Shown here: piece by piece, positions 37,260-46,200 of the stretch
Layout of the letters: each line of letters starts with the position of its first letter
Numbering within the stretch: position 1 is the stretch's first letter
Origin: Escherichia coli
GTDB lineage: Bacteria; Pseudomonadota; Gammaproteobacteria; Enterobacterales; Enterobacteriaceae
Direction: 5' to 3' (one strand)
Assembly: GCF_016026235.1 (NCBI RefSeq)
Contig: NZ_CP065614.1
DNA length: 64,000 nt
Position numbers: made by a program

Positions 37260-40200
37260 TGACCACTTCAGCGGGCCAGCGCAGAGCGCAGGAAGGCCTC
37301 CGTCTCTTCAACCAGACTCAGTTGCTGGTCTTTCTGACGGAGCAGGCTTTCCAGTTCTGCAATGCGAATGAGGTATTTCTGACTCATGGCCGTTTTTATA
37401 ATCCGGCCATGACATTTTTACAACATTGTCAGTGCATTAAGGCGGGATGTTTTTGGCTGACGCCAGTCCAGCTTATCGAGGAGCATTGCCAGTTGCGAGC
37501 GGGTAATTGATATTTTACCGTCACGCACCGCAGGCCAGATAAACTGGCCTTCCTCCAGGCGTTTGGTGAACAGGCACAGACCATCAGCATCAGCCCAGAG
37601 GATTTTAATCATGTCACCCCGTCAGCCACGGAAGATGAACAGGTGACCGGAGAAGGGGGTCTCATCCAGCACATGCTGTATCTGCTCTCCCAGACCGTTG
37701 AAGGATTTACGCATATCGGTAACGCCGGCAATGAGCCAGATGCGGGTGCCTGACGGGAGTGAGATCATCTTCCCCTCACGGTCAGTTCCCGGACCAACAC
37801 CGTGAGCAGCTCTGGTGAAGGATTTTCCAGCGTCATGTTGCCGTGACGGAATGATTGACCGCATTGACGCCAGAGTATTTGCTCAGATGACTGAAGTCAT
37901 TAATTGTATTAGCTCAGACCTGATCTGACTGATACCGGTTATTTATACAGGGATCTGCCCGATGCCATCGTCAGGTTCTTACCCCATAACTAATTGAGCC
38001 CCATGAGACCTGTACTGGCGGGACATCTGATGTTTAAAATTTATAATGCTCCTTACTAAGACCGTATTTTTTCATTCTGAGATAGAGTTTTTTCCGCGGG
38101 ATTTGTAAATATTCAGCAACCTCATTGATACGCCCCTGATGGATATTAAGCGCCTCTGTGATTATCTGTCGCTCAGCGTCCTCCACTCGTCTGTCAAGCG
38201 GTGTCGGGGTTCCGACGTGCATCAACGGATTTGCTGTTTCTGCCAGCGGTAATACTCCTACAGTAAACAGTTCTGCTGCATTGGCCAGCTCTCGCACATT
38301 ATTTGGCCACATGCGGCGCATCATCTCTTTGAGCATCTCTTTTCCCACTTCCGGAACAGGATGGTTAAGTCGTTGACATGCTTTACAAAGGTAATGGCGA
38401 AACAGTGGTTCAATATCATCGGGGCGTTGAGCTAATGGCAGGCAAGCGATTTGTGTCATTGCAAAGCAGTAATAGAGCTCCGCGATGATATGGTTGCTGG
38501 CGACCAGCTCGACCAGCGAGGTGTCTCCAATACCAATCAGGCGAAAAGGTCTGTGTTCCTGGCTTTGTAACTGAACCAGATGGTACTGCTGTTCACGCGT
38601 CAGGTGTTCAGGATGGCTGAGCACTAATGTTCCCCCCTGAGCCAGCGCAATGAAATCATTAAGCTGTAGTGCATTGTCTGGTGTCAGCTCGCGGTAGACA
38701 AATTCGCCTTGTGCATTACGTCCAAATTGGTGCAGATAACGTGCACCGGTCATCCGTCCTGTGCCTGGGGCCCCGTAGAGCCAGACGGCAATATCTGTTT
38801 CAGACAACTGCTGTAAACGTCGCCGATACTGATTTATCCATTCACTTCTCCCTATCAACTCCACCTGCAACGTCTGTTGGCAATACTGACGACGCGCAAT
38901 GATTGATTGACGCTGGCGTAGCGCCTCTTCAACCAGAGAAAGCAATTTGCCGGGATCAACCGGTTTTTGCAAAAAATCCCACGCGCCTTTTTTTACCGCA
39001 TCAACTGCCATTGGCACGTCGCCGTGCCCGGTGATAAGCAGAATGGGGATCTGTTGATCATCCTGGTGGAATAACATCATCAAATCGATACCAGAGCAGC
39101 CAGGCATACACACATCACTTAGCACAATACCTGGCCAGTCTGGTTGTATCCACGCCTGCGCCTCAAAAGGATTGTTACAGGCAAAAACCCGATAGCCTGA
39201 CTGTTCAAGTAATTGTGTGTAGGCGTCCAGCACGTCAGCATCATCATCAATCAGCAGAATCGAATATTCACTACTTAGCATCTTCCACATCCGTTAGTCT
39301 GAATTGCAGTACCACACAGGCATTCCTGGTCATCGTTGATGCCAGCCGTAATTCCCCTTTCATTTGCTCCATCAACGACACACAAATTGAAAGACCAATA
39401 CCCAGTCCTACTTCTTTACTGGTGGTAAACGGCTTCAATAACGAAGGCAACAATGCCTCAGGCCAGCCCGGGCCATTATCGCCAATGAATATGTTCAGCG
39501 TTTTACCCTGCATTTGCCAGTTAACGGTAATGACAGCGCCTTGCCCACAAACATCAAGCGCATTCGCCAGTACGTTAACCAGTACCTGCTGGGTTCTGAC
39601 CTCATCGCCTGAAACTGTGGCTGTACCTTGCGGCAGAACAAGCGTAGCTTGCAGAGGGCGATGACGCATGGCCAGAAGTTCCCAGGCCGCACTGAACATC
39701 TGTGCTAAATCAACGGCATGGAGTAATGTTTCCAGTTCGGCGCGCCGGGTAAACTGCCGTAGTGAACGGATAATGGCGTCAATGCGACCAATCACCCCTT
39801 CGGCTTTACCAAGCATCATGCTGGCCTGTTCTGTCTGGGTCTGTTCAATGGCCCTGCGGGCTGTAAACAGATACATCGACAGCGCATTTAGCGGCTGATT
39901 GATCTCGTGGGCCAGCGTGGTCATCGTTTGCCCGACTACCGCCAGCTTCGCTGTCTGAATCAGTTCGTCCTGGGTGGCGCGCAGATCGGCTTCTATCACC
40001 TTTCGATCGGTAATTTCTTGTTCAAGTTGCTGTTTTTGCACATTGAGCTGCCCGAGAGTATGGCGTAATAATCCTGCAATTCTCCCCAATTCATCATTCC
40101 CATAAACAGGAATAGTCGTTTCCGTGCCTCCCAGGCCAATTTGCACAACGGCCTGATTCAGTAGGGCAAAGCGTTTCACCAACCGTGAGCGGATAAAATA

Positions 40201-43200: not shown

Positions 43201-46200
43201 GTGGCCATCACCAGTTCATTTCGTTGAGCCCTGACGGCCCTGGCATCCATCAGCAGCAGTAAAAGAATCATGGTTTTGATGCCGATTTCGCACCAGCTAA
43301 AAAATCGGTTTGTGATCCAGGTCATAAATATTAATACACCGCAAAAATCGCATTGAGACAAAAATTACCCGTTACAGACACTTCATCTGATAACACGTCT
43401 GCTCAAAGAGACCGTTAATATATTAATCAGAGATTACCCGATAATCAGCATGAGATTTGTTAATATCCGCACATGCTAACAATAAAACAGATAAAGCATA
43501 AATCTATCCTGTCTATGCATCAATAAAATGGGTCAAAAACAGGCTTTGATTTTATTATTTTGTGTCAATTGTGACACATTTTTTCAGTTTGATGTTTCAT
43601 CTCAATTATATGACTCTCATTGCCAGAATTCTCTTGATGTTCATATCAATATAAAATACAGGTGAAGACATGTTATCAATATTTAAAACGGTGCAAGCGG
43701 CGGATAGTGTTCCGGCGGAGAAAATTCAGGTGACATATCATCGCTATCGTATGCAAGCGTTACTTAGCGTATTTCTGGGGTATCTTGCATACTATATCGT
43801 GCGTAATAATTTCACCTTATCGACGCCTTATCTTAAAGAGCAATTAGATCTCAGCGCCACACAAATTGGCGTACTGAGTAGCTGTATGCTTATCGCCTAT
43901 GGTATCAGCAAAGGAGTGATGAGTAGCCTTGCCGATAAAGCCAGTCCGAAAGTCTTTATGGCGTGTGGGCTGGTGTTATGTGCCATCGTTAACGTTGGCC
44001 TGGGATTCAGCACCGCATTCTGGATTTTTGCGGCATTGGTTATTCTGAATGGTCTTTTCCAGGGAATGGGCGTTGGTCCTTCTTTCATCACTATTGCTAA
44101 CTGGTTCCCTCGCCGGGAGCGTGGTCGGGTTGGTGCTTTCTGGAATATCTCTCATAACGTCGGTGGTGGTATTGTTGCACCGATTGTTGGTGCCGCTTTT
44201 GCCCTACTCGGCAGCGAGCACTGGCAAAGTGCGAGCTATATCGTTCCGGCCTGCGTGGCCATCGTTTTTGCGGTAATTGTGCTAATTCTCGGTAAAGGTT
44301 CCCCACGTCAGGAAGGTCTGCCCTCGCTGGAAGAGATGATGCCGGAAGAAAAAGTCGTCCTGAATACCCGACAGACGGTAAAAGCACCAGAAAACATGAG
44401 CGCCTTTCAGATTTTCTGCACTTATGTATTACGCAACAAAAATGCCTGGTATGTCTCACTGGTTGACGTATTTGTATACATGGTGCGCTTCGGGATGATT
44501 AGCTGGTTGCCTATTTATCTGCTGACGGTGAAACATTTTTCTAAAGAACAAATGAGCGTCGCGTTTTTATTTTTTGAATGGGCCGCAATCCCTTCCACGC
44601 TACTTGCCGGTTGGTTGTCAGACAAACTGTTTAAAGGGCGTCGTATGCCATTGGCGATGATTTGTATGGCGCTGATTTTCATTTGCCTGATTGGCTACTG
44701 GAAAAGTGAATCGCTGTTTATGGTGACAATTTTTGCTGCCATTGTTGGTTGTCTGATTTACGTTCCACAATTTCTGGCTTCTGTTCAGACTATGGAGATC
44801 GTGCCCAGCTTTGCTGTTGGCTCCGCGGTAGGTTTACGTGGTTTTATGAGCTATATCTTCGGTGCATCTCTGGGCACCAGCCTGTTTGGTATTATGGTCG
44901 ATCATATTGGCTGGCATGGCGGATTTTATCTTCTTGGCTGCGGTATTATTTGTTGCATCATTTTTTGCTGGTTATCACATCGTGGTGCAATTGAACTTGA
45001 ACGTCACAGAGCCGCATATATAAAAGAACACTGATTACCGTCCCCAGGGGCGTTTCCCTGGGGAGTGGAGCATCTTATGATTTATAAGATATCTGGCAAT
45101 CAGAAATTAATATGGAAATTTTATAAAACTGAACCGCCCCGGGAATCCTGGAGACCAAACATCCTGAGAAAGAGGTAAACAGGATGACTAAAAATACTCG
45201 TTTTTCCCCCGAAGTCCGTCAACGGGCAGTCCGTATGGTTCTGGAAAGTCAGGGCGAATATGACTCACAGTGGGCGGCAATTTGTTCCATTGCTCCAAAG
45301 ATTGGCTGTACACCGGAGACTCTGCGTGTCTGGGTACGCCAGCATGAGCGGGATACCGGAGGCGGTGATGGCGGGCTCACCACCGCTGAACGTCAGCGTC
45401 TGAAAGAGCTGGAACGTGAAAATCGTGAACTGCGCCGCAGTAACGATATCCTTCGCCAGGCTTCCGCTTATTTTGCGAAGGCGGAGTTCGACCGCCTCTG
45501 GAAAAAATAATGCCACTGCTGGATAAGCTGCGTGAGCAGTACGGGGTCGGACCGCTATGCAGCGAACTGCATATTGCCCCGTCAACGTATTACCACTGTC
45601 AGCAACAGCGACATCATCCGGATAAACGCAGTGCCCGTGCGCAGCGCGATGAGTGGCTGAAGAAAGAGATACAGCGCGTATACGATGAAAATCACAAGGT
45701 ATACGGTGTAAAGTCTGGCGTCAGTTGTTACGGGAAGGTATCAGAGTGGCCAGATGCACTGTGGCACGTCTCATGGCGGTTATGGGACTTGCCGGTGTTC
45801 TCCGGGGTAAAAAGGTCCGTACGACCATCAGCCGGAAAGCCGTTGCCGCAGGCGACCGCGTAAACCGTCAGTTCGTGGCAGAACATCCTGACCAGCTGTG
45901 GGTGGCTGATTTTACTTACGTCAGCACATGGCAGGGGTGGCGTTCATCATTGATGTGTTTGCCGGATACATCGTGGGGTGGCGGGCCTCATCGTCCATGG
46001 AAACGACATTCGTGCTGGATGCTCTGGAGCAGGCGTTATGGGCCCGTCGACCGTCCGGCACAGTCCATCACAGTGATAAAGGTTCTCAGTATGTATCGCT
46101 GGCCTACACACAGCGGCTTAAGGAAGCCGGATTACTGGCATCAACAGGAAGTACAGGCGACTCGTATGACAACGCGATGGCGGAGAGCATCAATGGTCTT

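Follow-up and report, generated by a model that had tools for sequence, protein, structure and literature searches.

The pgt locus on this invasion plasmid is a phosphoglycerate uptake system in which the sensor gene, pgtC, has been split by an IS1 element. The insertion is confirmed as real; the knockout is of an ordinary kind, specific to one lineage, and the system it affects is already well known. The reading we favour, an IS1 knockout of pgtC within an IS-bounded pgt module on the invasion plasmid (pINV) of an enteroinvasive E. coli (EIEC) with concomitant loss of pgtP induction, is given a probability of about 0.85 as a whole; the loss of induction itself is predicted from Salmonella genetics. 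The window, i.e. the whole stretch of 64,000 nucleotides that was analysed, derives from a Shigella/EIEC-type invasion plasmid and carries ospD3, ospC1 and ospC4 upstream of the pgt locus. The region contains the following features:

34516-37852, minus strand: left boundary, an IS66-family element 88% identical to ISEc23, 5'-truncated within tnpA
38034-39281, minus strand: pgtA, NtrC-family response regulator and pgtP activator, 415 aa, uninterrupted
39271-41280, minus strand: pgtB, sensor histidine kinase, 669 aa, uninterrupted
41277-42169, minus strand: 3' fragment of pgtC, codons ~110-405, including the left duplication copy (tblastn; no stops)
42161-42169: left copy of the target-site duplication, CGGAGGTTG, abutting the IS1 end
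42170-42937, minus strand, same orientation as pgtC: complete IS1 of 768 bp with insA, insB', A6C frameshift motif and inverted repeats
42938-42946: right copy of the target-site duplication, CGGAGGTTG, abutting the IS1 end
42938-43271, minus strand: 5' fragment of pgtC, codons 1-111 (tblastn)
43272-43669: divergent pgtC/pgtP intergenic control region, 398 bp, with no window-private changes
43670-45034, plus strand: pgtP, MFS organophosphate:phosphate antiporter for 2-PG, 3-PG and PEP, 454 aa, uninterrupted
45130-46427, plus strand: right boundary, an IS3-family element of the IS629/IS1203 group, full-length, orfB frameshifted

As judged from its sequence, the region is a Salmonella-type pgtP/pgtC-pgtB-pgtA phosphoglycerate uptake module. 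The scores against the respective NCBIfam equivalog models exceed the cut-offs for the regulator PgtA (NF047793, 728 bits, cut-off 650), the kinase PgtB (NF047794, 1069 bits, cut-off 1000) and the antiporter PgtP (NF047787, 884 bits, cut-off 750), and pgtP is oriented divergently from the pgtC-pgtB-pgtA unit, as is characteristic of the Pgt system. The profile search returned no NCBIfam HMM match to PgtC; the restored protein of 405 aa matches the Pfam families SBP_bac_6, SBP_bac_11 and SBP_bac_8, indicating a solute-binding-protein fold, and its homologues at 80-97% identity carry the name PgtC. The restored reading frame encodes a solute-binding-protein-like sensor upstream of pgtB, the gene as present being disrupted. 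A Uhp-type locus, with regulation by UhpA (NarL-type), UhpB and UhpC, is ruled out: the UhpT and UhpC models match only PgtP, with scores below their cut-offs (272 vs. 497 and 236 vs. 564, respectively), the GlpT model also stays below its cut-off, and no Uhp regulator model occurs among the 25 best matches listed for either regulator, the top matches being PgtA and PgtB.

The original prediction of an intact pgtP-like transporter and intact pgtB/pgtA-like regulators is borne out by the uninterrupted reading frames and by the 100% identity of all three proteins to those of NZ_CP065612.1, a plasmid with an intact locus; PgtP is also 100% identical to WP_000948760.1 of intact loci. PgtA contains E141, G173 and H223, the residues of the functional protein of S. 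Typhimurium, and the equivalent intergenic region of Salmonella (435 bp) has been reported to accommodate both promoters (PMC11077982). A longer pgtA reading frame starting from 39290 contains three extra codons. The Salmonella enterica pgtP/pgtCBA system, which was compared via the NCBIfam models and the residues known from the literature, consists of the same four genes in the same divergent order, whereas the copy in the window is located in an IS-bounded block on an EIEC invasion plasmid and has a pgtC split by IS1. A distantly homologous locus on a metagenome scaffold, from the large PgtC cluster P0005, has the divergent synteny too and was informative in that respect only.

IS1 elements typically end in terminal inverted repeats of ~23 bp. 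The element in pgtC, the only IS1 in the window, has the expected length and A6C site, terminal inverted repeats of 24 nt which are 88% complementary (GGTAATGACTCC.../...GCATTACC), and intact insA (42607-42882, 91 aa) and insB' (42185-42688, 167 aa) genes on the minus strand. The 772 nt at 42168-42939 have a 100% identical counterpart, likewise bearing IS1, on the S. flexneri plasmid NZ_CP026812.1. Both ends are directly abutted by CGGAGGTTG, a perfect 9-bp repeat which does not occur anywhere else in the window and which would match by chance at these two fixed positions with a probability of ~4e-6. IS1 separates codons 110 and 111 of pgtC, one of the two junctions reading ...GAGTCATTACC followed by CAACCTCCGTTGCAG..., and translation of the 5' fragment as present proceeds to ...IRTTSG before meeting a stop just inside IS1. 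If IS1 and one copy of CGGAGGTTG are deleted in silico, the two pieces, which correspond to PgtC residues 1-111 and 110-405 in tblastn, rejoin in frame to a 405-aa open reading frame. A publicly available partial protein, P0040, has the same sequence as the product of the 3' fragment. The earlier claims that a pgtC-like gene has been split by IS1 with a perfect 9-bp duplication, and that its pieces are co-linear fragments of one gene, are therefore both upheld.

The duplication had also been taken to imply a simple and relatively recent insertion. Besides its perfect conservation, the simple nature of the event is evident from the empty site with a single CGGAGGTTG in 12 related EIEC pINV plasmids; alignments to three of these break exactly at 42169/42938 with a 9-bp overlap in the subject, which demonstrates the empty site, and the pgtC region was seen uninterrupted in the other nine. 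Neither the 5,426 complete E. coli genomes nor the 72,556 plasmids (PLSDB) that were searched for the IS1/pgtC junctions contained a true match. The few matches that spanned 80% or more of the query turned out to be chance extensions at other IS1 sites, with ~85-89% identity. The top full-coverage chromosomal matches resembled further IS1-bearing pgt loci, but in the two that were inspected IS1 is located outside the operon and all four genes are intact. An insertion within pgt is thereby ruled out for these two, and an IS1 hot spot was not indicated. Together with the intact state of IS1, the lack of any further stop or frameshift in the pgtC fragments and the identity of PgtA, PgtB and PgtP to the proteins of the intact locus, the absence of the junction from the searched genomes and plasmids supports a recent insertion in the sense of a lineage-specific one. 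This has to be qualified, since the insertion is common to a clone: the draft contig DABDTE010000131.1 (4,894 bp), which is 100% identical to 37274-42167 and ends at the IS911 and IS1 borders, is present in eight samples, so the insertion is not confined to one isolate. The source names of these samples include E. coli O124, and the clone carrying pgtC::IS1 probably belongs to this serogroup.

The pgt genes are contained in an IS-bounded block of 6.3 kb (38026-45132 of the window, 6,330 bp), and a comparison of its copies supports the earlier suggestion that the locus arrived as a block. The same pgtABCP module is found at 98.3-98.5% nucleotide identity over 6,330 bp in chromosomal E. coli genomic islands (e.g., GI-pheV of UPEC 536, S79EC; PMC11537424), where its neighbours are IS remnants and fimbrial operons. 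Next to pgtA, the module breaks off at the same position as in the window, ~8 bp past the pgtA stop, whereas the IS remnants behind it differ; at its pgtP end, the sequence shared by the islands continues past the position at which the block of the window is cut off by the IS629-like end. In contrast to the plasmid-borne copy in the window with its split pgtC, these copies are chromosomal and intact. Much closer relatives are present on other EIEC pINVs (NZ_CP065612.1, pCFSAN029787_01 from NZ_CP011417.1, and those of the Thai isolates VL40 and VL46, RMDEC332 and RMDEC364), whose blocks are 99.84-99.94% identical and flanked by the same IS66 remnant and IS629-like element, but contain a single CGGAGGTTG and a full-length pgtC. 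NZ_CP065612.1 additionally has an IS911 insertion in common with the window. The flanks had been described as a truncated IS66 element and an IS629-like copy, which is correct as to their types but incomplete: the left element is also split by IS911 (~36024-37276), its tnpB contains an in-frame stop, and the right element is full-length but frameshifted. The latter is ~94.6% identical to IS1203/IS629 copies, and the RefSeq label of the identical copy says no more than "IS3 family transposase, frameshifted"; IS629-like appears to be a fair name for this degenerate element. It lacks a target duplication, so the right boundary was formed by recombination and not by simple insertion. A literature search on pgt in EIEC and Shigella retrieved no paper describing either a plasmid-borne pgt locus or pgtC::IS1.

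IS1 insertions are classically polar. The stop codon of pgtC overlaps the start of pgtB (ATGA), and pgtB and pgtA overlap by 11 bp as read from the sequence, which gives the three genes an operon-like layout. Because IS1 resides in the first gene of this overlapping unit, the intact regulator genes are not necessarily expressed, and IS1 is probably polar on pgtB-pgtA. Scanning the IS1/pgtC region for promoters and terminators produced nothing above background that bears on polarity, and pgtB-pgtA may still be transcribed from an internal promoter or by read-out from IS1. As summarized in PMC11077982, which cites Jiang 1988 and Niu 1995, PgtC senses 3-PG and PgtB acts on PgtA, which activates the pgtP promoter. 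In this lineage, a functional-looking IS1 moved into codon 110/111 of pgtC, generating the usual 9-bp duplication. In an intact system, PgtC with its inducer enables PgtB to phosphorylate PgtA, which then activates pgtP. The insertion would remove the PgtC sensor, and polarity would probably lower the expression of pgtB and pgtA as well; the intact pgtP should then be silent, leaving the strain without inducible growth on 3-PG, 2-PG and PEP. The loss could be complemented if the strain has another pgt copy on its chromosome, outside the window. Moreover, pgtP may not be fully silent here, given that Salmonella has a second direct activator of this gene, the regulator VrpA (PMC7873081).

Since IS1 copies are highly repeated in these genomes, one of them might have been misplaced into pgtC during assembly. 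We regard this as hardly conceivable in view of the perfect duplication exactly at the IS1 termini, the reading frame regained upon removal of the element, and the independent draft assemblies of eight samples, in which the contigs break precisely at the IS1/IS911 borders. IS elements can also create hybrid promoters, and IS1 might have uncoupled pgtB-pgtA from PgtC or might drive outward transcription, resulting in constitutive or otherwise altered pgtP expression. PgtC-independent expression would be possible in principle, judging by the title of a 1995 paper by Niu et al. (cited in both PMC11077982 and PMC12403712), which refers to pgtB mutants expressing pgtP constitutively without pgtC. 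The expression named in that title, however, required mutations in pgtB, whereas PgtB of the window is of the wild type, being 100% identical to that of intact loci. Such rewiring is highly improbable for these reasons; it is further at odds with the classical polarity of IS1, and the scan revealed no convincing outward promoter.

Two further readings were considered. The locus may already have been decaying, PgtC having lost its function or come under relaxed selection on pINV beforehand; IS1 would then be a secondary event and not the cause of the phenotype. Within the 6,330-bp block, the window has just two private SNPs, which both fall in pgtC and alter its product (G11R, located in the signal-peptide region, and L295F), and pgtC contains 9 of the 16 variable sites among the pINV copies while making up 19% of the block length. 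However, these numbers are very small, the SNPs could equally have followed the inactivation, and a full-length pgtC has been kept in most other pINVs, which makes prior decay rather unlikely. The many frameshifts in pgt genes of the three UK plasmids CP091385, CP046677 and CP091399 were not counted as decay, because their few annotated features and scattered indels resemble long-read sequencing error more than biology. We consider it similarly doubtful that the loss of PgtP-dependent 3-PG and PEP uptake favours invasive EIEC, the regulators being knocked out repeatedly as a pathoadaptive trait. Three independent IS insertions in regulator genes are known among 13 pINV-type loci (pgtC::IS1, pgtA::IS2 in VL7S7, and pgtA::IS600 in CP119444.1), pgtP is free of IS insertions in all 13, and no pgt match was obtained on the Shigella plasmids listed in PLSDB. 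Parallels are found in host-adapted Salmonella, in which the lesions likewise affect regulator genes: pgtA G173D in S. Typhi, decay of pgtB in S. Paratyphi A (PMC11077982) and a stop codon in pgtC of S. Dublin (PMC12403712). In S. Typhi the transporter works and the regulator is disabled, comparable to the intact pgtP and split sensor gene of the window, but the host-adapted Salmonella carry point mutations, whereas the window has an IS insertion with a predicted effect. From these cases one might conjecture that PgtP-mediated uptake of host glycolytic intermediates has been silenced repeatedly and independently, always via the regulators, in both EIEC pINV lineages and host-adapted Salmonella, and that this was selected rather than neutral IS noise; we are inclined to doubt it. 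The pINVs are saturated with IS elements, with insertions expected everywhere, the regulators represent 77% of the coding target, giving a chance of ~0.45 that three out of three insertions hit them, and pgt is intact on most pINVs. The number of IS insertions is too small to show selection. Finally, S. Typhimurium is aided by PgtP in its growth inside host cells (PMC7873081), which speaks for the uptake being beneficial rather than costly.

The favoured reading, a lineage-specific IS1 knockout of pgtC, is of modest value. It predicts that one EIEC clone would show no inducible growth on 3-PG, 2-PG or PEP, makes the pgtC::IS1 junction available as a clean clonal marker, and adds one more data point on IS-driven gene decay in the invasion plasmids of EIEC and Shigella. 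Given the role of PgtP in S. Typhimurium (PMC7873081), the intracellular use that EIEC may make of a plasmid-borne pgt system, and the neutral, costly or adaptive nature of its loss, would be of interest.

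The pgt genes for phosphoglycerate uptake were mapped from an ORF listing and direct reading of the window from 35 to 48 kb, and are given here together with the elements around them:

34516-37852, left boundary: IS66-family element, 88% identical to ISEc23, nested and decayed
38034-39281/39290, minus strand: pgtA, NtrC-type regulator, 415/418 aa
39271-41280, minus strand: pgtB, histidine kinase, 669 aa
41277-42169, minus strand: pgtC, solute-binding-protein-like gene, fragment 1
42170-42937, between both pgtC fragments: IS1, 768 bp, insA and insB' intact on the minus strand
42938-43271, minus strand: pgtC, solute-binding-protein-like gene, fragment 2
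43670-45034, plus strand: pgtP, MFS transporter, 454 aa
45130-46427, right boundary: IS3-family element, ~94.6% identical to IS1203/IS629, orfB frameshifted
46942-50502: tdcA-like LysR regulator, M20 metallopeptidase, small hypothetical protein, DUF3100 membrane protein

The pgtC stop and the pgtB start share an ATGA, and 11 bp are common to pgtB and pgtA, which indicates co-expression of pgtC-pgtB-pgtA; a distant homologue locus shows the identical arrangement, with pgtP divergent from these three genes. The IS1 has the termini GGTAATGACTCC... and ...GCATTACC and contains the A6C frameshift motif, and each of its ends adjoins CGGAGGTTG, which has no further occurrence in the 64-kb window. In silico removal of IS1 and one repeat joins the pgtC fragments in frame to a 405-aa ORF without stop, and tblastn assigns them to PgtC residues 1-111 and 110-405, which places the insertion between codons 110 and 111. 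When aligned with three related plasmids, the window shows breaks exactly at 42169 and 42938, and the two aligned parts have a 9-bp overlap in the subject, so each of these plasmids has CGGAGGTTG only once and its pgtC is uninterrupted; by sequence comparison, this empty site in relatives is the decisive control for the insertion. The original prediction that IS1 splits pgtC with a 9-bp duplication, leaving two co-linear fragments of one gene, is thus confirmed.

The IS1 is intact, its duplication perfect, and the pgtC fragments are free of further stops or frameshifts, while searches of 5,426 complete E. coli genomes and 72,556 plasmids gave neither IS1/pgtC junction and this IS1 was missing from all 12 fetched pINV-type loci. 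These features agree with the proposed simple, relatively recent insertion, albeit one not confined to one isolate. A protein search retrieved a 296-aa "partial PgtC" (P0040) beginning with TSVAVA, which corresponds to codon 110. Its contig, DABDTE010000131.1 (GCA_012807895.1; 4,894 bp), covers window 37274-42167 with 100% identity; one end stops 2 bp before IS1, and the other coincides with the IS911 border. This contig is recorded in eight samples, whose source names include E. coli O124. Because short-read assemblies break at repeats, these draft samples very probably share the IS1 and IS911 insertions of the window, and since the identical contig ends at these borders in all eight, pgtC::IS1 is to be regarded as a clonal marker and not as a single-isolate event. 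A misassembly is effectively excluded, as the clonal draft contigs breaking at the IS1 border provide independent support against it.

The proteins score above the cut-offs of the NCBIfam models for PgtA (728 bits, cut-off 650), PgtB (1069 bits, cut-off 1000) and PgtP (884 bits, cut-off 750). Since the UhpT, UhpC and GlpT models match PgtP, but below their own cut-offs, and the matches listed for PgtA and PgtB include no Uhp regulator model, the regulators are of the Pgt rather than the Uhp type. The restored PgtC was matched by no NCBIfam PgtC model; it has a periplasmic solute-binding fold (SBP_bac_6, SBP_bac_11, SBP_bac_8), and Enterobacterales homologues of 80-97% identity bear the name PgtC. 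The transporter and both regulators are intact as predicted, being 100% identical to the proteins of the intact locus on plasmid NZ_CP065612.1, their expression being a separate matter. PgtA shows the S. Typhimurium state at the three positions differing in S. Typhi PgtA (E141, G173, H223), of which G173D is the loss-of-function change (PMC11077982). Note that the NtrC-family PgtA (38034-39281) shows GAPGTG at residue 170 as its Walker A motif and lacks the GAFTGA sigma-54 contact motif, and that precomputed Pfam matches to Sigma54_activat are merely "faint" for a PgtA of identical length.

As it stands, pgtC is truncated past residue ~111, translation ending just within IS1, and the sensor would be lost. 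IS1 insertions are classically polar, and because the overlapping genes indicate co-expression and IS1 sits in the first of them, a polar effect on pgtB and pgtA is to be expected, the intact regulators probably being under-expressed. Either sensor loss or polarity would render pgtP non-inducible despite its intact gene, and we infer this state for the locus. In the known system, PgtC senses 3-PG and acts via the kinase/phosphatase PgtB, which phosphorylates PgtA, the activator of the pgtP promoter (PMC11077982, summarising Jiang et al. 1988, Niu et al. 1995), and the divergent intergenic region holds both promoters (PMC11077982). The effect could conceivably be offset by other inputs to pgtP, such as VrpA in Salmonella (PMC7873081), by a promoter internal to the unit or by another pgt locus on the chromosome. 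As PgtB is wild type, IS1 is unlikely to have rewired the regulation.

An unlikely rival reading is that pgtC was already decaying before IS1 arrived: relative to seven pINV and three chromosomal copies, the block contains only two window-private SNPs, 41612 (L295F) and 43241 (G11R, in the signal-peptide region), both nonsynonymous and both in pgtC, and 9 of the 16 sites variable among pINV copies fall into this gene, which makes up 19% of the block. This pattern may reflect relaxed constraint on the sensor gene, though the SNPs could equally postdate IS1. Another unlikely rival is a selected loss. Two independent events are seen on other pINVs, pgtA::IS2 at codon 134 in VL7S7 (locus L004, NZ_JBLWKF010000002.1, 3135-5718) and pgtA::IS600 at codon 340 in CP119444.1 (locus L002, regions 6138-8649 and 11340-11346), paralleling the way in which S. 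Typhi, S. Paratyphi A and S. Dublin lost the system at the level of its regulators. With three events in all, IS-saturated plasmids and regulators that represent 77% of the coding target, the pattern is not significant.

The window is, as its sequence indicates, part of an EIEC/Shigella-type invasion plasmid, because positions 1-25000 match pINV regions with the T3SS effector genes ospD3, ospC1 and ospC4 and many IS elements. The pgt neighbourhood is 99.5-99.9% identical to EIEC pINVs, including pCFSAN029787_01, FDAARGOS_945 unnamed2 and several Thai pINVs; among Shigella plasmids listed by PLSDB, the IS1 part alone was matched and pgt was not. On the pINV CP119444.1, pgtC also appears frameshifted near codon 173, and an IS1 lies directly 3' of pgtP, at the position of window 45113-45121. 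The 6,330-bp block (38026-45132 less IS1) recurs in chromosomal islands at 98.3-98.5% identity, which supports its predicted import as a block; ~430 of the 5,426 complete genomes hold at least 80% of the query, and pgtABCP is a module of GI-pheV (PMC11537424). The chromosomal blocks adjoin S/F1C or other fimbrial operons, and the IS remnants beyond pgtA differ. Both predicted bounding elements, a truncated IS66 and an IS629-like copy, were recovered in refined form: the former has lost its 5' end within tnpA, is interrupted by a full IS911 (~36024-37276) and carries an in-frame tnpB stop (FIFRG*RGD), while the latter, beside pgtP, is flanked by AAC and GTT and lacks a target duplication. Exactly where its inverted repeat starts, homology to the chromosomal islands ends, and the islands run on with sequence common to them. 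This degenerate IS629/IS1203-group element marks a recombination joint. Since the block occurs in chromosomal islands with other IS remnants and homology ends at the right element, capture via IS-mediated events is supported over ancestral plasmid DNA.

Elsewhere in the window, a second IS911 piece (9585-9794; 210 bp) is 100% identical, and the frameshifted IS3 element has a second copy at 56049-57356, the two being 97.9% identical. Related pINVs also carry the low-GC cluster (34-43%) that follows the IS629-like element on the right, in conserved form. An apparent frameshift near codon 32-36 (~31297-31312), relative to the intact 798-aa FaeD of NZ_CP065612.1, affects faeD (29009-31405, minus strand), the usher gene of F4 (K88)-type fimbriae, so the fimbrial operon beside pgt may also be non-functional.

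The original prediction is correct, in observation and interpretation, in all testable respects. Biologically the case is routine: IS1 has made a pseudogene in a known accessory system, and the plasmid belongs to a type in which IS-driven decay is familiar. The one wider lead is that invasive enterics may have silenced 3-PG uptake convergently.
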